From contig CANJVR010000001.1 of the NCBI GenBank assembly GCA_947478395.1, forward strand, positions 192,001 through 256,000: a stretch of DNA of 64,000 bases, read 5' to 3'. The notes below the pieces were generated by a model, which had not been told where the DNA came from, made no database searches, and was given only the letters and a program-made list of their open reading frames with translations. A program made the translations under genes and the position numbers. Numbering within the stretch: position 1 is the first letter of the stretch; each line of letters starts with the position of its first letter. Below are positions 4,306-60,175 of this stretch, piece after piece. Source of the stretch: Opitutia bacterium. Its GTDB lineage: Bacteria; Verrucomicrobiota; Verrucomicrobiia; Opitutales; Opitutaceae.

Positions 4306-4439
4306 ACCGGTTTAACCCAAAGCGTAGCCGCTAACGACGTAGCGGCAGGCTTCCCTGCCGGCCGGAACGAGGACGCCGAACCCGGCAGGCAGAGACGCCT
4401 GCCGCGACCCAAGACGGCCGCGAAAAAACTGAAACCGCT
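4306..4439 (+). repeat. About 134-bp REPIN/MITE-like element, copy 2 (direct repeat of 2716-2848)
   Basis: Colinear similarity to copy 1 over its whole length. Confidence 0.8.
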
Positions 4440-28653: not shown

Positions 28654-28834
28654 ACTCGGCCCACCTGCGTCGCTGGTGGTCTCGACCCAAATCCTCGCTC
28701 TCCCGCCCAACCAAACGAACCCGCCTCACCGGCCGCACCGCGCCAGTGTTTTAGCTCTTTTGCTTCAAACGTTAAATTTGGATAGCGCCGGATGGCCCTT
28801 CGCGCGCGATCGACTGCTCGGCCGCCGTATACCC

Positions 28835-29791
28835 ATGAAATCATTCTTCGCCTTCCTCATTTCTTCCCTCGGGCTTTTATTCGTGATGACGGCCGGGCAG
28901 ACGCCTGCTTCAGCGGGCGAGCTCAGCGAGATTCTTCATTTTTCCCTGCTACCAAAAGCGCTGCAAAAAAATCCCCGTCTGGAACTGACGGCCATCTGCG
29001 AGATGACCGATGACGGCCGAAAACTGCCCATCGTGACGAAGGATCGTCCCACCTACTACGTCCTGTCTTCGAACGGTAATCGCCAAGCGGGAGAAAATTA
29101 CGCGCATGAAAAAGTGATGCCCCAAGCCGGGGTCGCGCGCCTGCTCGAAAAGGCCCTCGCGGCCAATGGCTTTCTTCCGGCGGCGCCGGGCAAACTGCCC
29201 ACCGTTGTGATTTACTACACCTGGGGCTCGCACAATACGCTCGAAGAAAACGACTATGAAAATCCGGTGCATACCGACACCGAGATCGCCCGCAATCTCC
29301 TCGACCGCGCTTACCTGGTTGGCGGCGCGAAACTGGTGCGGGAGCTGCGCCAAGTGATCCAGGAAACAGAGGATATCAGCCTCATGACCACCCCGGCGCT
29401 GGCCACCGGTGGCGAACAGCCGATGCAGCCGGCGGCGTACGCGCTGATCAACCCCCTCAATCGCTTTCGCATGCATGGCGCGAAAAACGAGTTCATGATC
29501 AGCCAGTGCGGCAACAACGTGTATTACGTCGTGGCTTCCGCCTACGATCTCGCGTCAATCGCTTCAAAAAAACGCGTGCTCCTCTGGCGCACCCAGATGA
29601 CGGTCGGTTCCAACGGCCTCTCCCAGTCGCAGTCGTTTCCCGCTTTGGTCGCGTCCGCTGCGCCTTTTTTCGGCCGCGATATGACGGACCCGGAAATCAT
29701 CGTCCGCCATGTGGTGGACGACGGTCAGGTCACGGTCGGCCACGCCGTCGTCGTCCCGGACGCCACGGGCGCGACACCCACGAAGAAATAA
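28835..29791 (+). CDS. Exported hypothetical protein, paralog A
   Basis: Signal peptide; clear full-length similarity to next gene. Confidence 0.75.
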   Translation: MKSFFAFLISSLGLLFVMTAGQTPASAGELSEILHFSLLPKALQKNPRLELTAICEMTDDGRKLPIVTKDRPTYYVLSSNGNRQAGENYAHEKVMPQAGVARLLEKALAANGFLPAAPGKLPTVVIYYTWGSHNTLEENDYENPVHTDTEIARNLLDRAYLVGGAKLVRELRQVIQETEDISLMTTPALATGGEQPMQPAAYALINPLNRFRMHGAKNEFMISQCGNNVYYVVASAYDLASIASKKRVLLWRTQMTVGSNGLSQSQSFPALVASAAPFFGRDMTDPEIIVRHVVDDGQVTVGHAVVVPDATGATPTKK

Positions 29792-30077
29792 ATCGCCGGG
29801 CGCTTCCAAAAAGCGCGTCCAGAACGCGCTTTCTCGTTTGTCATGGTAAGCGCAGCGCGGTGGGCGGGGTGCCCACAATTGTCATTGGCCGCTCCGGCGA
29901 AAGCGGCGCGGTCACCCCGAGGCTCAGGATGACAAACCGTATTCAGCCCGGCCCCACTTCGCCCGCGCCTTTTAAGGCCCCCAGTTCATCGTGAGCGTCA
30001 TCCGGCTTGCAGTACGGCCACGGCGAATATCCTCCCCACGAAGCTCGGGTTTCCGAGCATTTCATCCCCCAGCGCCC

Positions 30078-31061
30078 ATGAAACCTCTTTTGATCTCCGG
30101 CCTTCTCGCGCTGGCGCTAACTGCGATCGCCCGGGCCGAATCGTCGCCGCCTGCCGCCGACACGAAGCAGCCGGACCCCGGCCAGCATTGGATTTTTGCC
30201 CTGCTGCCAAAAACGTTTCAGAAAAATCCCAAGCTAGAACTCACCGCGATTACAGAGATGACCGCGAACGGTCGGAAGCTGCCGGTCGTCACCCCAGAGC
30301 ATCCCGCATACTACGTTCTTTCCTCAAACGGCTATCACCAACAGGGGGAAACCAGCAGCCGGGAAAAGCCCATGGCGCAAACCGATGTGGCCCGGCTGCT
30401 CGAAAAAGCGCTGGCCGCCAACGGCTATCATCCGGGCGAACCAGGCAAGCCTCCCACGCTCGTGATCTATTATACGTGGGGCACGCACAACACGCTTGAA
30501 GAAGCGGACGAAGATAATCCGGTCCACTCCGGCGCAGAAATTGCGCGCAATCTCCTCGATCGCGCCGCGCTCGTCGGCGGCGAGAAATTCGCGCGCGAGG
30601 TGCTGCGGGTGATTCGTGAAACCGACGACATGAATACCGCCGCGATGGCCTCAATGGGGAGCGGCGGCCAGCCGCCGATTTCCCCCGAGATGTTCGCGTT
30701 CTCGAATCCGCTTAATCTCTTCCGCCTGCACAGCGCGAAAAACGATCTCATGATCAACCAGTCCGCGAACAACGTGTACTACGTCGTGGCCTCCGCTTAC
30801 GACCTCGCGACCCTGGCGGAAAAAAAGCTGCTGCTGTGGCGCACCCGGATGACCGTTTCCTCCAACGGCCTTGCGCAAGAACAGTCGGTGCCCGCCATGA
30901 TCGCCACCGCGGCGCCTTTCTTTGGGCGCGACATGACGGAGCCGGAGATTGTCGTGCGCCGCGTGCTGAACGAGACCAACATCAAAATCGGTGAAGCCGT
31001 CGTGGTGCCCGATGCGACGAGCGGCTCGCCCACGAGCCCGCCGCGGCCCGCGCAGAAATGA
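30078..31061 (+). CDS. Exported hypothetical protein, paralog B
   Basis: Signal peptide; shares LLPK.QKNP.LELTAI, YYTWG.HN, YYVVASAYD, LLWRT.MTV, APFFGRDMT. Confidence 0.75.
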   Translation: MKPLLISGLLALALTAIARAESSPPAADTKQPDPGQHWIFALLPKTFQKNPKLELTAITEMTANGRKLPVVTPEHPAYYVLSSNGYHQQGETSSREKPMAQTDVARLLEKALAANGYHPGEPGKPPTLVIYYTWGTHNTLEEADEDNPVHSGAEIARNLLDRAALVGGEKFAREVLRVIRETDDMNTAAMASMGSGGQPPISPEMFAFSNPLNLFRLHSAKNDLMINQSANNVYYVVASAYDLATLAEKKLLLWRTRMTVSSNGLAQEQSVPAMIATAAPFFGRDMTEPEIVVRRVLNETNIKIGEAVVVPDATSGSPTSPPRPAQK

Positions 31062-31298: not shown

Positions 31299-32600
31299 AT
31301 GAGCGCACGGCCCGATATTTTGTGGATCATCACGACGCAATGGCGGGCGTCGGCCACCGGCTACGCAGGCGATCCTAATGCCGTCACGCCCTGCCTCGAT
31401 GCGCTCGCGGCTCAAAGCGTGAACTTCGCGCAGGCCGTCACGCCGCATCCGTTTGGCCCGTTCGCCCGCGCCTCGCTCCTGACCGGCGTGCATTCGCCGC
31501 AGAATGGCGTGCGGGATTATTTTGATCCGCTGCCGCTCAAAGCCCGGACCATCGCCCATGATTTGAACGCTTGCGGCTACACCACCGCGTTTTTTGGAAA
31601 ATGGCATCTGGCGCGGCGCGATCCGGCGGCGGCTTTGGTCGGCGAGGCTCACGCCCGAACAATCGTGCCGCCAGCGGCGCGAGGTGGATTCGAACATTGG
31701 GAAGGATTCGAGAGCGGATTCCTGCTCAACGATCCGTGGCTCCACGGCACGCGCTTGGAAACGCCCCAGCCATTCGCCGGCTACCAAAGCGACGTGGTTT
31801 GTTCGCGCGCCGCCGAGTGGCTCCGGGAGCTCAAGGCGGCACCGTCTTCAACGCCCAAAGTTTCCACCTCAACCGCCGCTGCGGCGCCCTGGTTTGCCAC
31901 GATCAGCTTGGAGAGCCCGCATCCACCGTACGATGCTCCCGCCGCTGGCATCGCCGCGCGGCCGGCCGCAGCGATCGTCCTGCCCGCCAACGTACCGCGC
32001 GGCGCCGAAGTCGAGGCCCGCGCCCGGCGGGAACTCGCCGGATATTATGCACACATCACGGCGACCGACCGCGCCCTCGGACGTCTCGTGGCCGCGCTCG
32101 ACGACGAGGCCGTCCTCCGGGGCCGCCCCGCACCGGTCGTGGTGTTCACGTCCGTTCACGGCGACATGCACGGTGCGCATGGTTATTTTCGGAAAGGCTG
32201 GCCGTACGAGGAAAGTGTGCGCGTGCCATTGTTAGTGCGGGAGACGAAACCGCCGGGCGTGCGGTGCGGCATTTCGAGTTCGGCGTTGGTTTCACTGGTG
32301 GATCTGCCGGCGATGACCCGGGCGTGGGCCGGGCACCCAAACGCCCAAACTCCGGCCGCGGAACCCGAAACGGACATGCGCCGCATTTCCATGCCGTCGG
32401 TCGTCGCGCTGCCGCATCAGTGCGATCGCATCTGGCGCGGCCACCGCAGCGCGGCGCGAAAACTCATTCTCGATGAGCGGGGCGAGCCCTGGCTGTTTTT
32501 TGATTTGAAAGAGGACCCGCTCGAAACGCGAAACCTCGCCAACGATCCGGCGTACCGCGCCGAAATTCAAAGCGGACGCGCACGAATTCTAGCCGGGTAA
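31299..32600 (+). CDS. Sulfatase-fold protein lacking canonical catalytic residues
   Basis: RPDILWI, RASLLTG, FGKWHL, PHPPY, YEESVRVPL, FDLKEDPLE. Confidence 0.8.
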   Translation: MSARPDILWIITTQWRASATGYAGDPNAVTPCLDALAAQSVNFAQAVTPHPFGPFARASLLTGVHSPQNGVRDYFDPLPLKARTIAHDLNACGYTTAFFGKWHLARRDPAAALVGEAHARTIVPPAARGGFEHWEGFESGFLLNDPWLHGTRLETPQPFAGYQSDVVCSRAAEWLRELKAAPSSTPKVSTSTAAAAPWFATISLESPHPPYDAPAAGIAARPAAAIVLPANVPRGAEVEARARRELAGYYAHITATDRALGRLVAALDDEAVLRGRPAPVVVFTSVHGDMHGAHGYFRKGWPYEESVRVPLLVRETKPPGVRCGISSSALVSLVDLPAMTRAWAGHPNAQTPAAEPETDMRRISMPSVVALPHQCDRIWRGHRSAARKLILDERGEPWLFFDLKEDPLETRNLANDPAYRAEIQSGRARILAG

Positions 32601-32607
32601 ACGGGGA

Positions 32608-32621
32608 GCGACTGGTTCGGC
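32608..32621 (-). repeat. attC17 remnant (R'' end only)
   Basis: gcgactggttcggc matches the end of the repeat, truncated next to the sulfatase stop. Confidence 0.55.
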
Positions 32622-32628
32622 TCTGGTT

Positions 32629-32927
32629 TCACGGATTCGCATTCAGTTGCACCTCGATCCTGCGTTCGACCCGATCACGAAGAACCGTAACGACCGTCCG
32701 CTTCCCAGCGTACCGAGGGAGAAGGTCCAGCAGCTGCTGCGGCGATAAAATCGGGATATCGTCCAGCGCGATCACGACATCGCCGGCGAGAACATTGGCC
32801 CGGAAAGCCGGCGAATCGTCTATCACCCGCTTAACCAAAGCGCCTGTGTTCCGCTGCAGGCTTTTTCGCATCTCTTCGCGCAGCCCGAAAGAAGCGCGGT
32901 CGCAAATAGGAAGACGGTTTTCTTCAT
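32629..32927 (-). pseudogene. Cassette 17: PDZ-domain lipoprotein, internally deleted/frameshifted
   Basis: MKKTVFLFATALLSGCA (lipobox) is out of frame with the PDZ-like part (GALVKRVIDDSPAFRANVLAGDVVIALD). Confidence 0.7.
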
Positions 32928-32934
32928 AATTTTC

Positions 32935-32995
32935 GGCTAACGTTCAAGATGCGCCACGGCCACGCGCGGCCGTGGGCTTTAGCGTTTGGTTAGGC
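32935..32995 (-). repeat. attC16
   Basis: GCCTAAC...GTTAGCC, 61 bp, most diverged full copy. Confidence 0.8.
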
Positions 32996-33272
32996 TGTTT
33001 TCATTTTCAACGGCCCGCCGCAATACTGGGCCCATCAGAATCCAAGCCGATCCGCCGCTGAGGCAAAATAGCGCCACCCCATTCGCCAGGAGATTCAGCC
33101 AAAATGAACTTTGCCGTGGGAAGATAATCGCTGCGATGCGATCCGACAAAAACCACGAGCAAATCATCGTCCCGAGAACCGTCGAAAGAAAGGAGGACTT
33201 ACGCCGAACCTCAGTCGCGAGCCGCTTCCGTTCGACTTCGGGAATATCCCGATATTTTACCCGCGTGGTCAT
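32979..33272 (-). CDS. Cassette 16: small membrane protein
   Basis: ORF fills cassette, two hydrophobic segments. Confidence 0.65.
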   Translation of the reverse strand: MTTRVKYRDIPEVERKRLATEVRRKSSFLSTVLGTMICSWFLSDRIAAIIFPRQSSFWLNLLANGVALFCLSGGSAWILMGPVLRRAVENENSLTKR

Positions 33273-33281
33273 CGCATTTTT

Positions 33282-33342
33282 CCCGAGCGTTCAAGCTGAG
33301 CCCCGGCCGCTCGGGGCCGTTGGCTTTGGCGTCTGGTTAGCC
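33282..33342 (-). repeat. attC15 (core GTT changed to GCT)
   Basis: 61-bp copy of the repeat. Confidence 0.85.
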
Positions 33343-33345
33343 TTT

Positions 33346-33561
33346 TTAGAGCACAGCGATGAATTCATCGGCGGTAACACCAGCTTGGCGCAGTACACCA
33401 GAAAGCGTGCCTATCTTCACTTCACGATGCAAAGGGACTACGCAGCCAACCGAACCGCGGCGAAGCATAACATGGCTGCCCTTTTGACGTAATTGCTGAA
33501 AGCCGAGTCTTTCAAGGGCTCGTACGATTTCGGACCCAGAAAGATGCGGAAGCTTAGGCCC
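33346..33561 (-). pseudogene. hicA: Cassette 15: HicA toxin lacking a start codon
   Basis: Manual translation (G)PKLPHLSGSEIVRALERLGFQQLRQKGSHVML...VVPLHREVKIGTLSGVLRQAG; first codon is GGG. Confidence 0.8.
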
Positions 33562-33760
33562 CGATCGCTACCTCGAACGTGGTCAAAAGCGCGCTTCCCG
33601 CGACAGGAACCGAAAACTCGGACAGATAAAGCTCCGTCGCCTCACGCAGATTTTCGAGCGCCTGACGCAGATCTTCGCCTTGAGTCGTGGTGCCGGTTTC
33701 TGGATTGAGAGCGACGAATCCGCCTTCCTCGGCGGGCGTGAGAACTGCGGTGAGAGTCAT
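33554..33760 (-). CDS. hicB: Cassette 15: short HicB-family antitoxin
   Basis: AEEGGFVALNPETGTTTQGEDLRQALENLREATELYL. Confidence 0.85.
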   Translation of the reverse strand: MTLTAVLTPAEEGGFVALNPETGTTTQGEDLRQALENLREATELYLSEFSVPVAGSALLTTFEVAIGA

Positions 33761-33806
33761 AAGCTCAACTTGGCGGAGAAAGATGTGCCGTCAATCGGTC
33801 CTTTCC

Positions 33807-33867
33807 GACTGACGTTCAAGCTGAGCCCCGGCCGCTCGGGGCCGTTGGATCTGGCGGCTGGTTAGGC
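33807..33867 (-). repeat. attC14 (core GTT changed to GTC)
   Basis: 61-bp copy. Confidence 0.85.
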
Positions 33868-34124
33868 TTTTTTCTCATCGTGGAATCGCCCCAACGCCAC
33901 CGAGGCGACTCGCCTTTCCAATAGCAGAACACGATCAAGACCGCAGCCAGCGCCGCACTGTAGGTTGCAAAAAACAACGGGTGTTTCTCAGCCGCGGGTG
34001 CGCCCGCCGCGAGCGCGACAAAAAACGCGCCCATCACGAGCCAACCCTGCCAACGCGCGGGCAGGCCCCAGCCGTAACCATAGGTCTTTGCAGGAAACCA
34101 AGCTTCGTCTTTTGGGAGGGACAT
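33816..34124 (-). CDS. Cassette 14: small membrane protein, reads through attC
   Basis: WFPAKTYGYGWGLPARWQGW, two hydrophobic segments. Confidence 0.75.
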   Translation of the reverse strand: MSLPKDEAWFPAKTYGYGWGLPARWQGWLVMGAFFVALAAGAPAAEKHPLFFATYSAALAAVLIVFCYWKGESPRWRWGDSTMRKKPNQPPDPTAPSGRGSA

Positions 34125-34138
34125 AAAATATTTCTGGA

Positions 34139-34200
34139 GCCGAACGTTTCAAGCTGAGCCCCGGCCGGCTGCGGCCGTTGGCTCTGGCGGCTGGTTAGCC
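34139..34200 (-). repeat. attC13
   Basis: 62-bp copy (1-nt insertion). Confidence 0.85.
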
Positions 34201-34494
34201 TTTTTCTTCGAGCGCATCCCGAATCCATTTGGGATCGCGCCTGCAATCCAGCACGCGGAACACGACGGCTTCTCCGGAGGTAGTTCGGTAATAAACGGCG
34301 AAGGGAAAACGCTGGGCCAACAAACGATGAAACCCAAATCGCACACCGTGAATTCCAGTATGGAGCGTCAGTGAGTCGATCTCGGCGAAGAGACTGTCGA
34401 AGAAATAATCTCCCACCCCGGGTTCTTGATGATCGTAGAAAATTCTAGCAGACGCCAGATCCTCCAATGCCGAGCGCAGAAGCCTAACCTTCAT
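34195..34494 (-). CDS. Cassette 13: RelE/ParE family toxin
   Basis: ALEDLASARIFY, RFPFAVYYR, VFRVLDCRRDP. Confidence 0.85.
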   Translation of the reverse strand: MKVRLLRSALEDLASARIFYDHQEPGVGDYFFDSLFAEIDSLTLHTGIHGVRFGFHRLLAQRFPFAVYYRTTSGEAVVFRVLDCRRDPKWIRDALEEKG

Positions 34495-34706
34495 TCAAAA
34501 CGGCGCCGCAGCTCTTTCTTCGCGTCAGCCCATTCGAGCACCTCAATCCGACCAGCTGCGAAATCCGTCTCGGTTTTTTTAAGCGCTTCTTGATGCCGCG
34601 CGGGACTCTCAAAACTGCTCTCGTCGCCCGCAATATCGCTCCAGAGCGCTTCTATGATGCGGAGCTTTTCGTCAGGTGGAAGCTTGCGAAGTTCGGCGAG
34701 ACTCAC
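34491..34706 (-). CDS. Cassette 13: addiction-module antitoxin
   Basis: LPPDEKLRIIEALWSDI...WADAKKEL; ATGA overlap with toxin. Confidence 0.85.
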   Translation of the reverse strand: MSLAELRKLPPDEKLRIIEALWSDIAGDESSFESPARHQEALKKTETDFAAGRIEVLEWADAKKELRRRFE

Positions 34707-34752
34707 GACCCAAAACTAGTGGGCTAAACCGTGCCCGCAAGGGTTCTTTCTT

Positions 34753-34813
34753 GGCTAACGTTCAAGCTGATCCCCGGCCGCTCGGGGCCGTTGGCTCTGG
34801 CGGCTGGTTCGGC
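34753..34813 (-). repeat. attC12
   Basis: 61-bp copy. Confidence 0.85.
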
Positions 34814-35211
34814 TCCCTTTTCTTTTCGAAGCAGGCCCAGAGCAACAGTCCGTAAGCGAGCGCCCATAGGTAGTACCCGATTTGGATCCCCCACTCCCTC
34901 TGGGAACTGGACGCGAATGAGTAGGCGTTCATTGCGAACCAGGAAAGCACATGAACTAACATCAAGGTAGCGAGAATCCGATTGAAGACGCCACCACCAG
35001 CACGGGTAAAGGATAGCGCGGCAAGAACCACGAAGGCCAAATTCGTCAGGGCGAAAGCAGAGTAATACGGACTTTTAATAGGCTCTTTGCACAACAAGCC
35101 CCAGCACATCTCTTCGCACCGGAAGCCCGTGTAATCATGATACGCAGGCAGAAAGTGCGATGCGCCGAACACCAAAAGAGCAATGACCGCGATGATCGGA
35201 CTTATTTTCAT
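34762..35211 (-). CDS. Cassette 12: membrane protein, reads through attC
   Basis: About four hydrophobic segments; ATG directly after core site. Confidence 0.7.
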   Translation of the reverse strand: MKISPIIAVIALLVFGASHFLPAYHDYTGFRCEEMCWGLLCKEPIKSPYYSAFALTNLAFVVLAALSFTRAGGGVFNRILATLMLVHVLSWFAMNAYSFASSSQREWGIQIGYYLWALAYGLLLWACFEKKREPNQPPEPTAPSGRGSA

Positions 35212-35272
35212 ACCTAATGTTCAAGCTGAGCCCCGGCCGGCTGCGGCCGTTGGCTCTGGCGACTGGTTAGCC
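35212..35272 (-). repeat. attC11 (core GTT changed to ATT)
   Basis: 61-bp copy. Confidence 0.85.
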
Positions 35273-35437
35273 CGTTTTTCGATCCAGTAGCAATGTACGA
35301 ATCTTGTTTGGATTATGGGTGGCGCGGAGCGTTCGCCGCACGATCCGTGACAGACTTGAGCGTTGGCTGTAGCGGCTCGTTGGCCCGTTTGGGGGCTTGA
35401 GTCAAAGTGCGCGTGGGAATTTGTTGGTGGAAACGCG

Positions 35438-35764
35438 ATGACGAAACCCACCTGCCCGGAATGTACGATGGAAGAAGTGATCAGCCATGCCGAGCGCTGG
35501 GAATGTGCGACGTGCGGTCATGAATGGCCGAAGCAGGCAGTGCCTGAGGTGGCGCGCGTGGTGAAAGATGCGCACGGCAATGTGCTGACCGACGGCGATA
35601 GTGTGGTCCTGATAAAAGACCTGAAGCTGCGGAGTTCGTCAGGCGTGCTGAAGCAGGGAGCAAAGGCGAAGAACATCCGCTTGGTGGAGGGCGATCACGA
35701 AATCGACTGCAAGATCGACGGCACCGCGATCGCACTCAAAGCGTGTTTTGTGAAGAAGGCTTGA
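35438..35764 (+). CDS. Cassette 11: PhnA/YjdM zinc-ribbon protein, inverted relative to array
   Basis: CPEC...CATCGHEW, VKDAHGNVLTDGDSVVLIKDLK, NIRLVEGDHEIDCKIDG. Confidence 0.88.
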   Translation: MTKPTCPECTMEEVISHAERWECATCGHEWPKQAVPEVARVVKDAHGNVLTDGDSVVLIKDLKLRSSSGVLKQGAKAKNIRLVEGDHEIDCKIDGTAIALKACFVKKA

Positions 35765-35779
35765 GTGATCGAATTTCAG

Positions 35780-35820
35780 GCCGAACGTTTCAAGCTGAGC
35801 CGCTGAGCGCCTGGTTAGGC
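35780..35820 (-). repeat. attC10, internally deleted (41 bp)
   Basis: Both ends present, central stem-loop missing. Confidence 0.75.
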
Positions 35821-36276
35821 TGTCTGGTTTTCATCTAAAACTAAACGAAATGGCGTCATGGTAGATTTCGTAAATCCCGATCGCTCATAGAATTTTATGG
35901 CGGAATAATTCACGCTATCGGTCAACAATGTAACCCTCCCACAACCGCCATCGCGCGCCTGCAAAATTGCTGCCGCCAAAATAAGATTACCGAAGCCTTT
36001 GCCTCTGTGTTCCGGCGAAACAACCATATCTTCAAGTATCGCCACTTTCTGACCCATAAAAGTGCTTACAGTGTAAAGTATACTCACCATTCCAACAATT
36101 TCACCTTCGACACAACCAACTATAATATGCCCGTAAACTGGGTTTTCTAAAATCAACCTAAGGCCAGCTGCTTGACGCATCGCATCGGCCCTGAACTCGG
36201 CTTCTTGCTCAAAAAGCAGTTTAAGCAGTGCGCAAAGATTGGGCACATCGTCGAGGGTGGCGAAGCGGGTCTTCAT
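35815..36276 (-). CDS. Cassette 10: GNAT acetyltransferase
   Basis: LEDMVVSPEHRGKGFG, N..AIKFYERSGF; visibly AT-rich. Confidence 0.88.
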   Translation of the reverse strand: MKTRFATLDDVPNLCALLKLLFEQEAEFRADAMRQAAGLRLILENPVYGHIIVGCVEGEIVGMVSILYTVSTFMGQKVAILEDMVVSPEHRGKGFGNLILAAAILQARDGGCGRVTLLTDSVNYSAIKFYERSGFTKSTMTPFRLVLDENQTA

Positions 36277-36281
36277 TTTTT

Positions 36282-36341
36282 GCCTAAAGTTCAAGCTGAG
36301 CCCCGGCCGCACGGGGCCGTGGCTCTGGCGTCTGGTTCGGC
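36282..36341 (-). repeat. attC9 (core GTT changed to TTT)
   Basis: 60-bp copy. Confidence 0.85.
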
Positions 36342-36348
36342 TCTTTTT

Positions 36349-36711
36349 TCATTCGGGCCGTGGCGGCAGAGATGCGAGCAGCTTGGTCTCCTCCTCGGGA
36401 AAAGTGAGTGCGTATTTTTCTTTGTATTCGCGGATCTGCCATAACACCTGGACATCACCAGGGCGCTTGTATCCGAGCGCATCAAACCACTTCACCGACG
36501 TAGGCAGTGTGCTTTCGAGCATCGTCAAAACCTGCTCCGGATTATTTTTTCGCAGGAGCTTCGCGTGCACGAGGTGCTCTCCGACGACCGATACACTGAG
36601 ATTCTGAAGGACCGCAGTCGGTCCTTTGGCGATGACTATCCAACTGACACCCGCCCCAGCGACGGCGCCGACAAGACTTGATACTAGCGCGACTACAATT
36701 GTGGAACGCAT
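36349..36711 (-). CDS. Cassette 9: hypothetical protein with N-terminal signal/anchor
   Basis: ORF fills cassette. Confidence 0.65.
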   Translation of the reverse strand: MRSTIVVALVSSLVGAVAGAGVSWIVIAKGPTAVLQNLSVSVVGEHLVHAKLLRKNNPEQVLTMLESTLPTSVKWFDALGYKRPGDVQVLWQIREYKEKYALTFPEEETKLLASLPPRPE

Positions 36712-36723
36712 AAAATAAATTTC

Positions 36724-36783
36724 CGCCAACATTCAAGCTGAGCCAAGGCCGCTCGGGGCCGTGGCGCTGGCGTCTGGTTGGGC
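36724..36783 (-). repeat. attC8
   Basis: 60-bp copy. Confidence 0.85.
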
Positions 36784-36793
36784 TTCTGGTTCA

Positions 36794-36982
36794 TCAGGTG
36801 AATCGGAAAACTAGTCCGGGGAAAAGAAGTCCGCAGACAGCGAGCATCGCGCCACAGAGCATCACGAGATACGCCAGCATATACTTCCATTTTGCTTCGT
36901 CTTTCCTCTTCCGCATTCGCGCAAAGAAGATCGCACCAACGATGAAGAGGAGGCTGCCAATCGCGATATCTTGTGGGTTCAT
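36794..36982 (-). CDS. Cassette 8: 62-aa two-helix membrane protein
   Basis: ORF fills cassette. Confidence 0.6.
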   Translation of the reverse strand: MNPQDIAIGSLLFIVGAIFFARMRKRKDEAKWKYMLAYLVMLCGAMLAVCGLLFPGLVFRFT

Positions 36983-36995
36983 GGGGGTCTTTTTT

Positions 36996-37056
36996 GCCCA
37001 ACGTTCAAGCTGAGCCACGGCCGCTCGGGGCCGTTGGCTCTGGCGTCTGGTTCGGC
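36996..37056 (-). repeat. attC7
   Basis: 61-bp copy. Confidence 0.9.
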
Positions 37057-37304
37057 TCTTTATTCTTTCTAAAACCAGAGATCAGGAGAAATCGCAGAAT
37101 GCCAATCCCGCCGATGGAAAGCACGAGGCCAACAACTACGAGGCTCTTGCGGAACCAGCCATCATGACCATCCCCAAGCCAAAGAAGCGCCACGCCAACT
37201 AAGTGGACTGCCGATCCGACACCAAACATCCTCCAGGTTCTTCGCTTTTGAACACGCCGTTGCTCCGCCTCTTCCTCACTCTTCAAAGCGCCAGTTGTGG
37301 TCAT
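37005..37304 (-). CDS. Cassette 7: small membrane protein, reads through attC
   Basis: Two hydrophobic segments. Confidence 0.65.
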   Translation of the reverse strand: MTTTGALKSEEEAEQRRVQKRRTWRMFGVGSAVHLVGVALLWLGDGHDGWFRKSLVVVGLVLSIGGIGILRFLLISGFRKNKEPNQTPEPTAPSGRGSA

Positions 37305-37316
37305 AGGGTTTTCTTT

Positions 37317-37377
37317 GCCGAACGTTCAAGATGAGCCACGGCCGGCTGCGGCCGTTGGCTCTGGCGTCTGGTTAGGC
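37317..37377 (-). repeat. attC6
   Basis: 61-bp copy. Confidence 0.9.
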
Positions 37378-37970
37378 TCTTTTTTCGGTCGAAGGATGAT
37401 CCACTCCACCAAAAGAAGGTTTGGCACCCAACAGAGCCAACCCAGCGCTGGATAAAAAGAATCGAAGGGGAGACCTAACGCGAAGAAAACGCCGAGGTAG
37501 ATCCGGAGCGTAACGGCCGCGAAGGTAAGGGCAAAGCAGCGGATCGCCCACATCCGGTGATCCTCATAATCCCGCTCCCAAACCGCGAGCAACGCCCTGT
37601 AGCCGGTGTAGAGCCACAGCAGCGCGAGAACCGCAAAGCCGAGCTTCGACACCAGGCCTCCGTAGGCAACGAACGCCATCGCCAATCCTGTGACTCCTCC
37701 GAAAAGAACGGCCGAAAAGTAGGCGTAGCCGATCTTCCGATGGATCGCACGACGCTCTCGCACCGCCGGCAAAAACTGGAACGGTCCGGTCACCAATGCG
37801 ACGACCGAACAGAACACGTGGGCCAGGATTCTCACTCGATGCGCCGCATAGACCGACTTCATCGCGGGCGCTACCGTTGCGCCAGGCGTGAGCACACCGT
37901 AGGAGTAAATGGCATAGCCCGCCACGCCGAGACACAGGAGAAGCACAACAGAGAACGTAAGCTTCTTCAT
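37326..37970 (-). CDS. Cassette 6: DUF2306-like membrane protein, reads through attC
   Basis: HV..ALVTGPFQF, HRKIGYAY, HRMWAIRCFALTFAAVTLR, WLCWVPNL. Confidence 0.8.
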   Translation of the reverse strand: MKKLTFSVVLLLCLGVAGYAIYSYGVLTPGATVAPAMKSVYAAHRVRILAHVFCSVVALVTGPFQFLPAVRERRAIHRKIGYAYFSAVLFGGVTGLAMAFVAYGGLVSKLGFAVLALLWLYTGYRALLAVWERDYEDHRMWAIRCFALTFAAVTLRIYLGVFFALGLPFDSFYPALGWLCWVPNLLLVEWIILRPKKEPNQTPEPTAAAGRGSS

Positions 37971-37973
37971 TTT

Positions 37974-38034
37974 GCCTAACGTTCAAGATGAGCCACGGCC
38001 GCTCGGGGCCGTTGGCTCTGGCGTCTGGTTGGGC
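37974..38034 (-). repeat. attC5
   Basis: 61-bp copy. Confidence 0.9.
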
Positions 38035-38037
38035 CTC

Positions 38038-38331
38038 TTATTTTCGCATGATTCCAAAGCGAGGATGGCGCTTGTGGTGGCGAAGGACAAGGACGCGAAC
38101 TCCCGAGGAAACTTCTCGAAAGAGGAGATGATAAGGAAATGTCGCCATATTGGCTCGGCGTAATCCGTGTGGCGCTGGATGAAATCGTCGCGGCTCGCGC
38201 GCCACTTCTCCAACCAAAGTATCCAGCTCCGAGAAAAATCGGTCAGCCAACGGAGCTCCGCCTTCTTCCTCGTAGTACCTGAGAACCGCTCGCACATCCT
38301 TCTGAACGAGCCGATGAAAGATAAGCCCCAT
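38038..38331 (-). CDS. Cassette 5: RelE/ParE family toxin
   Basis: GLRRANMATFPYHLLFR, VLVLRHHKRHP. Confidence 0.85.
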   Translation of the reverse strand: MGLIFHRLVQKDVRAVLRYYEEEGGAPLADRFFSELDTLVGEVAREPRRFHPAPHGLRRANMATFPYHLLFREVSSGVRVLVLRHHKRHPRFGIMRK

Positions 38332-38334
38332 CGC

Positions 38335-38547
38335 TTACCGACCCAACTCTTGCTTCAAAGTAGACCACTCCACGCCGGACGCAGGGTCTGATTCTAATTC
38401 TGCATCCCTGCGAAGCGCCTCGGCGATCCCTTCGTCTTCGTCGGATAGGACGCCCGGAAGAGTCTGCAATAGATCCGACGCGAGCACAGCCCGCTCAGCG
38501 TCAGGCAGACTCATGACTTCTTTCGTGAGTTCTTGTAACCGCGTCAT
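38335..38547 (-). CDS. Cassette 5: addiction-module antitoxin
   Basis: LPDAERAVLASDLLQTL...EALRRDAEL. Confidence 0.85.
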   Translation of the reverse strand: MTRLQELTKEVMSLPDAERAVLASDLLQTLPGVLSDEDEGIAEALRRDAELESDPASGVEWSTLKQELGR

Positions 38548-38591
38548 GCCTCGACTGTGAGCTCAGATGTTCCGGACGCCACTCTTTCTTT

Positions 38592-38652
38592 GCCCAACGT
38601 TCAAGATAAGCCACGGCCGGCTGCGGCCGTTGGCTCTGGCGTCTGGTTCGGC
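38592..38652 (-). repeat. attC4
   Basis: 61-bp copy. Confidence 0.9.
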
Positions 38653-38655
38653 TCT

Positions 38656-39030
38656 TCAGGTTTTGCAGTCATTCGGAAAATGGTCAGCGAAATCTCCGAT
38701 CACTCTCAACTCATCGGGCTCGCACAGGCGTGGAAGCTTATTCGATGGGTGCCTCTCCTTCCACAAACGGAGGATATCGTAGTAATATGGGTCCGCGCAT
38801 CCGACACCGACTACGAACGCGCCTTCATCCTCAGCCGCGTGAACCACAGGCACGATAAGCCAAACCGTGAAGCCAATGTGCCGATTGCGGAAACCGAGCC
38901 ACCGAATCTTCTCAAGGGGGCGACTAAAATCTAAGAAATAAGGTCCTTCAGCGGTGAAACACCCCGTCTTACTTACCGCATAGTCGTCCGGACGACTATG
39001 AACCCTAAACAGCTGAATTCGCATGGGCAT
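38656..39030 (-). CDS. Cassette 4: hypothetical protein
   Basis: ORF fills cassette. Confidence 0.65.
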   Translation of the reverse strand: MPMRIQLFRVHSRPDDYAVSKTGCFTAEGPYFLDFSRPLEKIRWLGFRNRHIGFTVWLIVPVVHAAEDEGAFVVGVGCADPYYYDILRLWKERHPSNKLPRLCEPDELRVIGDFADHFPNDCKT

Positions 39031-39042
39031 GGCGCCAGTTTT

Positions 39043-39103
39043 GCCGAACGTTCAAGATGAGCCACGGCCGCTCGGGGCCGTTGGCTCTGGCGTCTGGTTA
39101 GGC
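39043..39103 (-). repeat. attC3
   Basis: 61-bp copy. Confidence 0.9.
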
Positions 39104-39678
39104 TCTTTTTCTGCTTTTCGAATAATCATGATGCGCTGCAGAGCGATCGCCTGATCAAAATGATCGCTATTCTCGACCAACGATTGAAGAGCGTAGGCGC
39201 TCTCCGAACAGTCGGCGATCGCGAATAAAATAAAACCCCACGAAACGCTTAGACTAAAGAAAACGTAATAGCTATGGAGGCCTGCGAAAATCCATGAGGC
39301 TACAAAAGCGATCAGAAGATATGATCCAACTGAGTTCTGCTTTCTTGGATCAAACTGAAGACGGGCTGCGATACGGATCCCTATCGCTGATCCCGCAATA
39401 CCAAATAGAAGCCACCAATCGCGCCTGTGCAGTGCCCATAGAGAAATAAAAACTGTCGGAACGACGAGATAAAGTAGCACCAAAGCGCCGAAGATTTTTC
39501 GCCGAAACCCTCTAATCAAATGACTAGGCTCTCCAATAACACATCTAAAACCCATTGTTCGACGCTGCACGCCGGTCACAAATTCAGCGTGGGTAACGCC
39601 CCGATTCGCGTTCGCGATGCTTACTTCTTGAATCTTATTAAACTCCGATAAGAAAGCGGCGTGAGCTTGGTCGTTCAT
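39052..39678 (-). CDS. Cassette 3: membrane protein, reads through attC
   Basis: About four hydrophobic segments. Confidence 0.7.
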   Translation of the reverse strand: MNDQAHAAFLSEFNKIQEVSIANANRGVTHAEFVTGVQRRTMGFRCVIGEPSHLIRGFRRKIFGALVLLYLVVPTVFISLWALHRRDWWLLFGIAGSAIGIRIAARLQFDPRKQNSVGSYLLIAFVASWIFAGLHSYYVFFSLSVSWGFILFAIADCSESAYALQSLVENSDHFDQAIALQRIMIIRKAEKEPNQTPEPTAPSGRGSS

Positions 39679-39688
39679 GGTCGGTTTT

Positions 39689-39749
39689 GCCCAACGTTCA
39701 AAATGAGCCACGGCCGGCTGCGGCCGTTGGCTCTGGCGTCTGGTTGAGC
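39689..39749 (-). repeat. attC2
   Basis: 61-bp copy. Confidence 0.9.
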
Positions 39750-39756
39750 TCTTTTT

Positions 39757-40296
39757 TCATCCGAGATTGTAGGGACGCTCTTTCTTCGCCGCGAACTCCC
39801 TCAAAAACTCCCGATCCGCATCTGTACCCGAAACAGTCATGCCCACGCCCTGCTTGATCTGCTCTTGCTCGATGAGATAGACCCGGTCACGAACGCGCTC
39901 ACTCAGATCTGCTAACGAAAACACCACGTCCTTCGCGTCGTCGTATGTGACCGAGCAAAGCAGATAGCGGTGAATGGCCTTATTCCTCTGACCGTAAGCG
40001 ACGGACAAATCATCGAAGAGAGACTGATCGATGACGCCCTCAGCCAATGCGCACTTATAAATCTCACGCTCGGGAATCATCGGATCGCCGTCTTCTTGTT
40101 TGACGAGGCGTTCGTCGATCTCAGAAGAGCGCTTTTTCAACTGTGCCTGTAGGACGAGACCCGTGCGTAACAGGCCATCAATCAAATTCGCTTGGATGAC
40201 GATGCACTCCAGGGCGGCGCGCTTCTCGAAAGCGACATTCAAGAGATGGGCGGCAGCGGCAAAGCCCTGAAGGAATCGTGAGAACGAAGGAGGCAT
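39757..40296 (-). CDS. Cassette 2: helical protein with HEPN-like Rx4H motif
   Basis: QRNKAIHRY motif in a predicted helical context. Confidence 0.65.
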   Translation of the reverse strand: MPPSFSRFLQGFAAAAHLLNVAFEKRAALECIVIQANLIDGLLRTGLVLQAQLKKRSSEIDERLVKQEDGDPMIPEREIYKCALAEGVIDQSLFDDLSVAYGQRNKAIHRYLLCSVTYDDAKDVVFSLADLSERVRDRVYLIEQEQIKQGVGMTVSGTDADREFLREFAAKKERPYNLG

Positions 40297-40302
40297 TTCT
40301 TT

Positions 40303-40363
40303 GCCCAACGTTCAAGATGAGCCACGGCCGCTCGGGGCCGTTGGCTCTGGCGTCTGGTTCGGC
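40303..40363 (-). repeat. attC1
   Basis: GCCGAAC-CAGAC-GCCAGAGC...GCTCATC-TTGAAC-GTTGGGC, 61 bp. Confidence 0.9.
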
Positions 40364-40367
40364 TCTT

Positions 40368-40829
40368 TTAACGACATATGCTGCTGCAGAGTCCTGCTTC
40401 CTTTAGTTTCCGGCGAATGATCGCCTTCATAAGAGAGACGGCAAGATTGAGCTCCGCGTCTCCGACCTGGTGGTCAATGAGCTTATCTTCCAAGTGACAA
40501 ACGCATCTATTTGCGGCGACCAGAACTTTCCACAACGCCTCACAATCTTCGTCGGTAGCAGGCAGGAGGATGGCCCGGACTTTGCACCTGAACTGCGGCG
40601 TGGATGGCTGTAGAGTAGTCCACTTCACGGTGTGAATGCTAATCGAGAACCGCTCACACAACGCGCGACATGTGGCTATTGCGGCGTCCATACATCCGCG
40701 GTAAATCCTACCTTCTTTGTCGTGTCCGACGGCGCTTTTGTAGTCGGCCACATCAGCAAATGACTCCAGGACACACCAGCGATGGTCGAGATGGGGGACT
40801 TCGTCAGCTGAGATTTTACTCTTCTTCAT
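40368..40829 (-). CDS. Cassette 1: hypothetical protein
   Basis: ORF fills cassette; ANRCVCHL weakly HEPN-like. Confidence 0.65.
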   Translation of the reverse strand: MKKSKISADEVPHLDHRWCVLESFADVADYKSAVGHDKEGRIYRGCMDAAIATCRALCERFSISIHTVKWTTLQPSTPQFRCKVRAILLPATDEDCEALWKVLVAANRCVCHLEDKLIDHQVGDAELNLAVSLMKAIIRRKLKEAGLCSSICR

Positions 40830-40835
40830 GTCTTT

Positions 40836-40880
40836 GCCGAACAGTGTTATTCACCCGAACTAGGTTTGTTACTGCTACAC
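40836..40880 (-). other. attI-like recombination site
   Basis: Minus strand GTAACAAACCTAGTTCGGGTGAATAACACTG|TTCGGC; core without attC hairpin. Confidence 0.65.
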
Positions 40881-41321
40881 AGCGGTGAAAGGCGGGGGAC
40901 GCTAGGCATGATGTTCTTTATGACCGTGTCCGCGCGCTGGATTACTCTTCCTCCCAGTTGAAGCGCCGCTGCCGCGAGCCAGACGCGCGCGGGTATCGCA
41001 AGCAACCTCAATGCCGAAAAGAACGGCCGCCGCTTTCGTTTTTTAAATCGGGTCAGTACGTACGATCAAATCGAACGGACTGCTCGCGCCGGTTTTGGGG
41101 TTTGAGTTGGGGGTGCGGCGAGGGGGCGCGGGGTGCGGAAGGGCATCGCGCTGCGGCACTCCCGAACAGGGGGCTGGGCTGGGCGGACGTAGGAAAGCTG
41201 AGGCCGGCAGGCAGGGACGCCTGCCGCTACGTAGAGCGGGGACGGAGACACGCTCACCGCTCAAAAATTGCAGGGACGCGCCGGTTGAATACTCAGCCCA
41301 CGTCCAGCGGGCGGGCTTACG

Positions 41322-42926
41322 TCACTTCGCGGCTAGACCGGGGGCGGCGCGGAAGGTCGCGAGACACGCGCCACTCGTCGTGTCCCAAATGCGGACTTCA
41401 CCGTCGTAACCGGCCGTCACGAGTCGGTTCGCGGCGGCATCGCAATCGAGCGCATAAACCCAGTCGTGATGGCCGACGTAGGCCCGGATTTCTTTCATCG
41501 TCGCGAGATCAAATTGTTTCACCCCGCCATCGGCCGAGGCGGCGAACACCTGGCCACCGCTCACCGCCAGCGCGAACACTTCCTGCTTGAAGCCGTGCTC
41601 CAGGTAACGCGCGTGACCCTTTTTCGCGAAACGGTTTTCCATGTCGGCGGCCGTGCCATTTTCGTCGCGGGCTTTTTCCGGCTCCCAGATTTGAATCCAC
41701 GCGCCTTTCCCGGCGCTCACCGCCACGGCGGGATCGGCGGTGAACTTCACGTTGTACACCGGATTTTGGCCCGCGTACGTCCCGATCATTTGATTGTGGC
41801 CGTTATAGGCGGTGAAGAGTTCGCCGGTTTCCTCCGCGTAGATTTTCACGGTCTTGTCCTTGCTCGCGCTCGCGACGAAACGGTTGTCGGCGCTGAAACT
41901 CACGCCGGTCACCCAGTCGGAGTGCAACTTCATGTTCCAGAGGCGACGGCCATCAGCCGCATCGTACACGCGCACGGTTTGGTCGGCCGCGCCGGCGGCG
42001 ATACGCTGGCCGTCGGCGCGAAAAACAGCGGAAAGCACCACGTCGTCAAAGGTATCGAGCACGCGGATTTTCTGCCCGCTGGCGGCGTCGAGGAGCGTGA
42101 GTTCGCCGTAATCGCCGGGCGTGCCGCCGCCGACGAGCAGCTGGCGTCCGTCGTGACTGAACGCGAGCGTCTGGATGCGTTGCGGGAGATGTCCGAGGCG
42201 ACGCGCGAGCCGGCCGGTGGTCGTGTCCCAGATGGTGACTTCGTGATAACCGCCGACGGCGACTTCACGGCCGCCGGGCGCGAGGGCGACGGCGAGCACG
42301 GGGACGGAGAGACGGTAGACGTCGGGCGCGGCGGGGTGTTCGCGCGGGCCGAGCATTGATTTCAAGGCGAGCTTGCGATCGGGGCCGTCGAATTTCGCGC
42401 CCTGCTCGATCCAGTTTTTGACGAGTGCGATTTGCGCCGGGGTCAGGGCATCGTCTTCGAACGGCATGCGTTCGTCTTCGGCGGTCGCGGTGATACGGGC
42501 AAAAAATTCGGATTTGTCCGCGTGGCCCGGCTCGATCGCGGCGCCGTTGGAGCCGCCGCGCATCATCTGCTCGAACGTGTGGAGGCGGAGGCTGCCGGAA
42601 TCCTTGCGCTCGCCGTGGCAGCTGATGCAGCGCTTGACGACGATGGGGGCGACGTCGCGCACGAAACTGACCTCCGCGGCGGGCGCGAGCGGAGCGAGCG
42701 CGGCGGGCGCAAGGACGCCGAGCAGGCGCCGCCAGTTTTGAGTTTTGGGTTTTGAGTTTTGAGTTGGCGCGCGCGGGGTCGGAGTTGGGAGTTCCGGGTT
42801 CCGAGTTCCGAATTCCGAGTTCCGGGTTGGAAGGCACTCGCGTTCACCGCGACGCCGAATTCCGAATGCCCAACTCAAAACCCAAAACCCGAAACTCAAA
42901 ACCCCGCCATTCTGATCCGTGTTCAT
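41322..42926 (-). CDS. Planctomycete cytochrome-c domain plus WD40 repeat protein
   Basis: VSFVRDVAPI..RCISCHG, RMP, WIEQGA, WD repeats; true start uncertain because of repeat tract. Confidence 0.85.
   Translation of the reverse strand: MNTDQNGGVLSFGFWVLSWAFGIRRRGERECLPTRNSEFGTRNPELPTPTPRAPTQNSKPKTQNWRRLLGVLAPAALAPLAPAAEVSFVRDVAPIVVKRCISCHGERKDSGSLRLHTFEQMMRGGSNGAAIEPGHADKSEFFARITATAEDERMPFEDDALTPAQIALVKNWIEQGAKFDGPDRKLALKSMLGPREHPAAPDVYRLSVPVLAVALAPGGREVAVGGYHEVTIWDTTTGRLARRLGHLPQRIQTLAFSHDGRQLLVGGGTPGDYGELTLLDAASGQKIRVLDTFDDVVLSAVFRADGQRIAAGAADQTVRVYDAADGRRLWNMKLHSDWVTGVSFSADNRFVASASKDKTVKIYAEETGELFTAYNGHNQMIGTYAGQNPVYNVKFTADPAVAVSAGKGAWIQIWEPEKARDENGTAADMENRFAKKGHARYLEHGFKQEVFALAVSGGQVFAASADGGVKQFDLATMKEIRAYVGHHDWVYALDCDAAANRLVTAGYDGEVRIWDTTSGACLATFRAAPGLAAK
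42734..42903. repeat. Heptamer tandem/inverted repeat tract
   Basis: (ttttgag)n, (ttccgag)n, (ctcaaaa)n; related tracts near 14583, 41092, 60048, 60111. Confidence 0.75.
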
Positions 42927-57450: not shown

Positions 57451-57563
57451 AGCGGTTTGAGGTTTCCTTGGCTGTATTGTGTAGCGGCAGGCGTCTCTGC
57501 CTGCCGAAGCGAGTACGCCGAACCCGGCAGGCAGGGACGCCTGCCGCTACGTCGTTAACCGCT
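57451..57563 (-). repeat. REPIN/MITE-like element, copy 3 (inverted, shorter)
   Basis: agcggttt...gtagcggcaggcgtc...gacgcctgccgctac...taaccgct. Confidence 0.75.
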
Positions 57564-60037: not shown

Positions 60038-60175
60038 GACAAGGCCTTGAGTTTTGATTTTTGGGTTCCGCGTTTTGAGTTTCTGCAACCGGCGAGGCAG
60101 GCTGGCCTTTCAACCCGAAACTCGAAACTCAGAACTCTAAACTGAAAGCGGTGGAGGCTTCAGCCTCGCGCTAAT

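Follow-up and report, generated by a model that had tools for sequence, protein, structure and literature searches.

An intI-less cassette array in an Opitutaceae genome, with a predicted attI site and a first cassette that differs between strains

How can a gene cassette array without an integrase, either beside it or elsewhere in its genome, carry different first cassettes in different strains? The question is raised by a locus of an Opitutia bacterium (Opitutaceae; GenBank assembly GCA_947478395.1), at positions 32608-40880 of a stretch of 64,000 nucleotides, here called the window, which is positions 192001-256000 of contig C1 (CANJVR010000001.1) of this genome, G000. The assembly consists of nine contigs, totals 3.31 Mb and is 98.83% complete. 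An earlier note on this DNA had described a 17-cassette integron-type array with an attI-like head and no integrase. Our analysis reveals attC sites of canonical geometry, a predicted attI site, no recognisable IntI in the genome, and a head that is not the same in other strains. Our estimate is a probability of roughly 0.55 that intI has been deleted and that a cognate IntI continues to serve the array in trans.

The attC sites and IntI were located by sequence profiles across the whole genome, in six frames for IntI; a general home-made attC finder gave about one false match per 9 kb and missed many sites, and the profiles were used in its place. Sixteen attC copies lie between 32935 and 40363 in a single orientation, fifteen of them 60-62 bp in length and one of 41 bp (35780-35820), the number and the lengths being those of the earlier note. 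A seventeenth is a stub (32608-32621), cut after R″, the spacer and two further nucleotides, 7 nt from the stop codon of a sulfatase gene. The sites separate 17 units of 272-657 bp. The figure of 17 cassettes holds for these separated units but not for their contents, since unit 11 includes an additional truncated site of the family's 99-bp attC type (35314-35384; 30 bits with a long-attC profile) and is therefore two fused cassettes, giving at least 18. The main open reading frame (ORF) is on the minus, or cassette, strand in 16 of the 17 units, the exception being an inverted YjdM gene in unit 11. The GC content is 0.549 in the array and 0.624 and 0.635 in its flanks. Over the 3.3 Mb genome the attC profile finds 15 of the copies at 57-76 bits and just two further clear matches, a result that excludes chance as the source of the array matches.

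Read on the plus (bottom) strand, the 61-bp site has the order R′ (7 nt), 6 nt, L′ (7 nt), stem-loop, L″ (8 nt), 5 nt, R″ (7 nt). Counted from the R″ end, the bases at positions 16 and 23 are unpaired, with six pairs between them, in all 12 of the 61-nt sites examined. PMC5027507 gives this layout for attC, with spacers of 5-6 nt per arm, a length of 57-141 bp, and extrahelical bases of which the one at position 16 is usually G. The central spacers here are 5 and 6 nt (7 in two sites); position 23 is T as published, and position 16 is T rather than G in 12 of 12 sites. The core triplet AAC/GTT is intact in 12 of the 16 sites, including all seven at the head, and broken at 36282, 35212, 33807 and 33282; the fourth core base may be any nucleotide and is not strictly R/Y. 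The description of the sites as near-identical was too strong: among 15 of them (105 pairs) pairwise identity averages 85% and ranges from 74 to 98%.

Covariation was examined in 47 distinct attC sites (12 from the window and 36 from relatives before collapse). Of all cells 89.6% are paired and 7 of 21 pairs show two-sided change, a number reached in none of 500 shuffles and compared with 1-4 for slid partners; the structure was drawn from the same sequences and the relatives were chosen by likeness, both of which favour it. Failure of the repeats to fold into hairpins had been named as one ground for refuting the array. The whole-site minimum-energy folds are unimpressive (dinucleotide z of +0.8 to -3.5), while geometry and covariation fit the attC hairpin, and it is on these two, rather than on folding energy, that we base it. 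A search of Rfam gave no matches. The start box of each cassette also pairs with the cassette's own R″: the match is perfect in 8 of 17 cassettes, as against 0 of 16 for linear sites and a shuffle expectation of 3.2 (p=0.0035), which we read as a trace of circular intermediates.

The head of the array carries the motif AATAACACTG/TT, in its single exact copy in the genome. In a family comparison set of 201 genomes, the motif with its core occurs in 71 and a reversed-pattern control in one; a sequence logo was built from 42 distinct heads. In relatives, 11 loci with a full-length IntI have the motif 86-223 nt ahead of the IntI open frame, and because it adjoins intact intI in this manner the array head is, by homology, predicted to be a true attI, in agreement with the earlier "attI-like" label. 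In the platforms of several relatives (L089, L083, L113, L130 and others) we noticed by eye two to three copies of a short box, direct and inverted, ahead of intI, within 170 nt of attI on its integrase side. These boxes, not recognisable in the window, are possibly operator or accessory IntI sites.

No intI is found where one is expected. From the attI core (40842) to the stop codon of the neighbouring WD40 gene (41322) there are 479 bp, somewhat more than the 440 bp or so first estimated, and this gene, which had been called convergent, runs toward the array in the direction of the cassettes; it is convergent with the missing intI only. Within the gap (40867-41321) tblastn with IntI returns noise, and neither the IntI profile nor a platform profile has a match; likeness to the family platforms stops within about 30 nt of the attI core. 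Two weak candidates were set aside, namely a match to a profile of the last 13 IntI residues (41227-41265), which is post hoc and scores 7.4 bits where real ones score 34-47, and an equally weak match to a DNA profile for an intI remnant, on the wrong strand. A sigma-70 scan for the Pc promoter gives no match upstream of attI; its single 9/12 match begins at the core, inside cassette 1. The gap also holds, at about 41193-41232, half a copy of a GTAG-type palindromic repeat, which could mark a deletion scar; the repeat has 206 matches in the genome at three or fewer mismatches, those at 2749-2818, 4339-4408 and 57481-57550 being in the window.

The genome encodes four tyrosine recombinases, one XerD-like (59093-60088 of the window, 18 kb from the array), one XerC-like and two that we read as phage-like. 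A profile of six family IntIs, run in six frames over the whole genome, matches the XerC- and XerD-like genes only; with TIGR02249 the best piece scores 77 bits against a cut-off of 265 and leaves model positions 175-236 unmatched, and none of the four proteins has the IntI insertion. Searches for a resolvase and, by motif, for a dif-like site found none. The absence of an integrase thus extends from the window to the whole assembly. With at least two attC sites, no neighbouring intI and no IntI in the genome, the array is a CALIN (a cluster of attC sites with no integron-integrase), a known class; it works like an integron array but is not a complete integron, and since no IntI was found in the sequenced genome it should be static there at present.

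The state in other strains was followed in four metagenome runs (X9, X12, X14, X17) from four other studies, as contigs only and aligned at 90% likeness, where joints can originate from other organisms or repeats, a caution that applies to X9 more than to the long record of X12. Eight runs flagged as possible sources of the assembly had been excluded, and the four come from the remaining 12. Record 5 of X12, 2632 nt long, spans 40833-42871 and departs from the window in 22 letters and three small gaps; it contains the attI-to-WD40 stretch at 99% identity, with no room for intI, and continues for 590 further letters. An X12 joint, from 33347 to 40833, has a depth equal to that of record 5 and ends in 44 letters matching attC. 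Together we read them as evidence that another first cassette, some 550 nt long, is present. The 33347-to-40833 joint recurs in X9, which in addition has cassette 7 joined directly to attI (37311 to 40831), with 12 shared letters and 39 on the short side. One intI-less platform therefore carries different first cassettes in different strains, and this suggests continuing gain or loss of cassettes at the front through an integrase supplied from elsewhere.

Farther from attI the attC upstream of cassette 8 is a different one in X9, X12 and X14. Tail cassettes 9-11, 13 and 15 are covered at more than 99% in X9 and/or X12, with 35232-36761 in one X12 contig and cassettes 13 and 15 in both runs; another departure in X12 is at 32884, in cassette 17, with about 970 other letters. 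Zero depth of X12 in the bins 37260-37743 and 39196-40647, and low depth of the other runs over much of the head, were not counted as evidence. Protein cluster sizes, looked up for ten cassette proteins, that of cassette 4 being without a record, are in line with the contigs: cassettes 1-3 have one member each, 6 and 10 two, 7 three, 14 four, 9 nine and 12 eleven.

The sites themselves form two layers. In all seven at the head the core triplet and the two extrahelical bases are intact, and the inner-stem probability is 0.83-0.95. All nine in the tail are damaged: the triplet is broken in four, a T is missing from two, one has a deletion, and a change next to position 23 is common to six. Inner-stem probability in the five tail sites folded is 0.00-0.04 in three, 0.48 in one and 0.90 in one. 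The T is missing at the second extrahelical position in both 60-nt sites. The shared change is an identical A-to-C substitution, confined to six sites within 33282-36341 and seen in none of 36 sites of relatives; it may be due to gene conversion along the array or to one template.

The features of the locus, from the attI end, are as follows.

41322-42926, minus strand: cytochrome-c/WD40 gene (PF07635, PF00400), flank, outside the element.
40867-41321, no strand: gap where intI is expected, without recognisable intI or platform remnant.
40813-40866, minus strand: predicted attI; core R box 40836-40842, after the conserved motif and a weaker upstream box; the stretch below 40842 is part of cassette 1.
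40309-40841, minus strand: cassette 1, protein of 153 amino acids (aa), no family; attC 40303-40363.
39695-40308, minus strand: cassette 2, 179-aa protein with RxxxxH motif; attC 39689-39749.
39049-39694, minus strand: cassette 3, 208-aa probable membrane protein, its frame entering its own attC; attC 39043-39103.
38598-39048, minus strand: cassette 4, 124-aa protein, no family; attC 38592-38652.
37980-38597, minus strand: cassette 5, addiction-module antitoxin (PF09720, E=3e-6) and ParE-family toxin (PF05016, E=2e-9); attC 37974-38034.
37323-37979, minus strand: cassette 6, DUF2306 membrane protein (PF10067, E=1e-36); attC 37317-37377.
37002-37322, minus strand: cassette 7, 99-aa probable membrane protein; attC 36996-37056; end of the near-intact head block.
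36730-37001, minus strand: cassette 8, 62-aa probable membrane peptide; attC 36724-36783, one base short at the second extrahelical T.
36288-36729, minus strand: cassette 9, 120-aa protein; attC 36282-36341, core triplet broken.
35786-36287, minus strand: cassette 10, GNAT acetyltransferase (PF00583, E=2e-18); attC 35780-35820, internal deletion to 41 bp.
35218-35785, minus strand: unit 11, a fused pair of YjdM/PhnA gene and cassette stub; attC of the stub 35212-35272, core broken.
35438-35764, plus strand (inverted): YjdM/PhnA gene of unit 11 (TIGR00686, above cut-off), with the truncated attC 35314-35384.
34759-35217, minus strand: cassette 12, 149-aa probable membrane protein; attC 34753-34813.
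34145-34758, minus strand: cassette 13, second antitoxin (PF09720, E=2e-11) and ParE-like protein (PF05016, E=0.0013, below cut-off); attC 34139-34200.
33813-34144, minus strand: cassette 14, 102-aa membrane protein; attC 33807-33867, core broken.
33288-33812, minus strand: cassette 15, HicB-like antitoxin and HicA-like toxin (phrog_497, phrog_353); attC 33282-33342, core broken.
32941-33287, minus strand: cassette 16, 97-aa protein, no family; attC 32935-32995.
32608-32940, minus strand: cassette 17, broken lipoprotein-PDZ gene (PF13180); cut attC stub 32608-32621.
31299-32600, plus strand: sulfatase gene (PF00884), flank, outside the element.

The protein of cassette 2 has a HepT match at E=0.0028, far below cut-off, and a HEPN-like nature is a lead only; that of cassette 3 has no family match in profile searches. 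In cassette 17 the signal-peptide-like start and the PDZ end are in separate frames. The HicA-like toxin frame of cassette 15 (33346-33555) has no start codon at the expected place, the antitoxin being intact. The ORFs of cassettes 3, 6, 7, 12 and 14 run through their own attC and end in a common 17-residue tail, which is also found in cassettes of relatives; apart from this attC-encoded tail, only cassette 14 (a 54% homologue in the array of another family member) and YjdM have clear homologues in the relatives' loci that were fetched. None of 14 cassette proteins was matched in a PADLOC defence search, and a protein atlas gave nothing usable for cassette 1 and unnamed clusters as neighbours of cassette 2. 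Beyond the sulfatase gene, at 28676-31061, tandem paralogues of a 356-371-aa protein of no assigned function follow a PilC-like gene; this region has extra inserted sequence in X9, X12 and X14, and a replaced stretch ahead of the sulfatase gene differs between X9 and X12.

What the locus has lost can be judged from its relatives. In the genome collection the attC motif occurs at 32 loci, with several in some genomes; 30 are titled Verrucomicrobia and 26 have Opitutae-level names, in keeping with the earlier assignment to a PVC lineage and to a lineage-specific family of sites. IntI above cut-off is present in 83 of the 201 family genomes and in 4 of 17 genomes of the genus. Of the 131 attI sites counted, such an intI lies on the expected side and no more than 2.5 kb away in 31; the other 100, without a full intI, are a maximum, as some loci are truncated by contig ends and scoring was limited to 10 candidates per genome. 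Twenty attI loci from genomes with several attI sites form a decay series: four have a full intI, five an N-terminal stub and 11 nothing, and in G021 the start of intI is fused to its last codons in two satellites, an internal deletion. It is this series that the proposed deletion at the window locus fits, and with it the earlier suggestion of an array orphaned by integrase loss.

The same genomes bear on service in trans. In the single-contig genome G101 an intI-less attI is followed by a first cassette that agrees in 331 of 332 nt with a cassette within the intI-bearing array; the shared segment breaks at the cores, and the platforms are just 61% alike. G021 shares a block of 1659 nt at 99.8% between platforms that are 74% alike. 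We conclude from these two genomes that intI-less attI sites in the family exchange cassettes with a complete integron. Single-contig genomes have up to seven attI sites (seven in G215, four in G101, three in G021), one adjoining intI in each. The earlier proposal of an unlinked recombinase acting in trans has indirect support from the strain heads and from cassette sharing in relatives, though the assembly itself has no IntI.

A comparison of the sulfatase-WD40 junction in relatives had also been suggested. The junction is not directly comparable, since the WD40 gene is in none of the 17 genus genomes at E≤1e-80; the sulfatase gene has other neighbours and no attC array in all 10 genus loci examined (15 were found). 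The three relatives of the WD40 gene at 79-80% have no attI, attC or intI after the gene (one record ends 78 nt past the match), and a metagenome scan for the gene gave 13 loci, none of this species, of which the nine examined have no attI, attC or intI. The position of the array is not conserved across the genus. A scan of metagenomes for the window attI gave no matches, the near records possibly being outside the scanned set.

Several smaller observations concern related sites. Two intI-less attI arrays (L079 and L080, on contig C5 of G031) lie 17 kb apart with 500-bp heads that are 86% identical, in a genome without IntI found. About ten family-related attC-like sites are on a contig titled Paceibacterota (L094, 1-4600), through mis-binning or cross-phylum cassette sharing, and viral contig L156 has three, with no IntI in the examined stretch. 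Elsewhere in G000, contig C7 (about 109590-110700; L009, 6589-7693) has two decayed attC sites with what we read as a cassette-like gene for a secreted protein and a glyoxalase-like gene, joined to a truncated hydrolase-like gene near a tRNA-like sequence; this is a small integron relic. On C1, at 111475-111656, a frameshifted fragment that resembles the cassette 9 protein at about 80% identity lies with an attC-like stub beside a tRNA-like sequence. A weak match at the start of contig C9 falls within coding sequence and was discarded.

Our preferred reading is, then, that a chromosomal integron of the Opitutaceae type lost intI by deletion and kept attI, becoming an attI-bearing CALIN or satellite array. 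Cassettes would enter singly at attI as circles, the newest at the head, IntI recombining double-stranded attI with the folded attC bottom strand, an established mechanism whose signature is present here. The tail is decayed and locked through breaks in core triplets, the loss of extrahelical bases and stems that misfold, its toxin-antitoxin cassettes probably helping to hold it. Turnover at the head, where strain differences are observed, would have continued after intI was lost from the locus. The agent may be a cognate family IntI acting in trans, from a second integron in other strains or one passing through; cassette sharing in relatives is the basis for this step. Mobilisation of CALINs in trans has been proposed before (PMC4889954, PMC9668308, PMC11389934, 10.1101/2025.06.18.660453).

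A number of results weigh against this reading. No helper IntI of this species was found in the assembly, nor any IntI in 42 viral loci (8 + 34) with the attC or attI motif, attC-like sites occurring in one of them. The deletion of intI at the locus is inferred from relatives because a remnant is not demonstrable in the gap. The X12 joint is tied to record 5 through equal depth, the X9 joints have just 37-39 letters on the short side, and the caution attached to 90% likeness applies to all strain joints. The circle test is weaker when total mismatches are used (p=0.018). Since all cassettes of the family have a similar start, 10-12 nt of attI recur at every one, and a deletion between these microhomologies could leave junctions that look precise. 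Finally, at E≤1e-30 an integrase match is lacking in 25 of the 71 genomes with attI, and many such arrays may simply be dead.

The main rival reading is an array that has stayed inert from the loss of intI onward, the strain differences being due to deletions between similar attC repeats or at the 10-12 nt microhomologies and to homologous replacement of the head by older alleles. The lack of IntI in an assembly of such completeness fits, as do the 12 shared letters at the joint of cassette 7 and attI and the clear decay by deletion (the 41-bp site, the truncated site of the 99-bp type, the cut tail, the broken cassette 17); Xanthomonas lineages with dead intI are also reported to retain stable arrays (10.1101/2025.06.18.660453). 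Three different first cassettes would, however, require at least two independent core-precise events at attI, and the integrase-free excision reported in PMC5371416 concerns only 60-bp cassettes in one assay. A dead array also accords poorly with head sites that are near-intact and head proteins that are monomorphic beside a polymorphic tail, and with the near-identical copies of cassettes from an intI-bearing array at the intI-less attI sites of relatives. We regard an inert array as a real possibility, though less probable than service in trans.

Alternatively, IntI could be encoded at a second integron left out of the assembly; the same cell would then hold a complete integron, with the array as its ordinary satellite. 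The genome is in nine contigs and the family's intI is often on short ones, several attI sites per IntI are common in the single-contig relatives named above, and decayed cassette relics occur elsewhere in the genome. Yet with 98.83% completeness, contig ends (insertion sequence, rRNA, repeat sequence) that show no attC or attI, and two single-contig genomes (G122 and G167) that have attI and no IntI-like match, demonstrating that true absence does occur, we find this unlikely. Still less probable, and without support, is the earlier idea of a non-canonical recombinase, XerCD or one of the two phage-like integrases. XerC/D can act on single-stranded substrates (PMC5027507), and the XerD-like gene is at hand in the window; against it, no IntI insertion and no resolvase were found, the same attI and attC accompany ordinary IntI across the family, and attI is reported to need its cognate integrase (PMC2095811). 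Assembly of the array de novo at a secondary chromosomal site (the attG route), with no intI platform ever present, would agree with the early end of platform likeness and with a locus that is empty in the relatives examined, but is very unlikely, being already largely refuted by the homology of the head to attI (the 12-nt family motif is unique in the genome, and the reversed-pattern control is absent from 200 of 201 genomes), and the products of that route are mostly one or two cassettes (10.1101/2022.09.11.507474).

Returning to deletion of intI with continued service in trans, we tentatively extend it to the family, with somewhat less than even confidence: Opitutaceae-type integrons may routinely shed intI and keep attI, their satellites outnumbering complete integrons and continuing to gain cassettes, so that IntI would be a shared, intermittent resource of the population and decayed tail sites would fix the older genes. 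CALINs in genomes without IntI may be dead relics or live platforms, a question that is hard to settle in part because attI has been described for a minority of lineages (PMC4889954). As the 12-nt motif marks the platform family-wide, integrase-less arrays can here be sorted by presence or absence of the docking site. The locus is a natural test in two respects: between lakes one and the same intI-less head is followed by different first cassettes, and undamaged attC sites stand next to damaged ones; the T found as the first extrahelical base offers, further, a simple test of the substrate rules of IntI.

CALINs are a common named class, half of them in genomes without IntI and 95% without a recognisable intI pseudogene (PMC4889954). 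As in that account, the window array carries two or more attC sites, no nearby intI or recognisable pseudogene, and a genome without IntI. Unlike a CALIN as described there, it keeps an identifiable attI, a site which the program of PMC4889954 finds for classes 1-3 only, and its head is not constant from strain to strain. What is new beyond the class is that a family attI is retained and that the head changes; in a search mostly outside subscription journals we found no published account of this attI, of attI-bearing satellites in the family, or of strain-level turnover at an intI-less attI.

With the sedentary chromosomal integrons of Vibrio and Xanthomonas the array has in common homogeneous, lineage-specific attC sites, toxin-antitoxin cassettes and mostly unknown genes, and with those of Xanthomonas also repeated inactivation of intI. 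It differs from both in the length of its sites (61 bp as against 120-129 bp), in the T instead of the usual G at the first extrahelical position, in a position that is not conserved across the genus, and in belonging to a family with several attI platforms per genome. Insertion of cassettes at secondary sites has been described (10.1101/2022.09.11.507474) as SALIN (a single attC site without an integron-integrase)/attG; this too yields cassettes without a nearby integrase and probably fits the small relics on C7 and C1, whereas the main array starts at the family attI and not at a random genomic site. The closest likeness of structure is to the complete Opitutaceae-type integrons (L012, L016, L018, L097, L108), which share with the window the attI core motif, the 61-bp attC family and the cassette start pattern, and in which an IntI frame of 430-545 aa starts 86-223 nt from attI, where the window has a gap of 479 bp without it.

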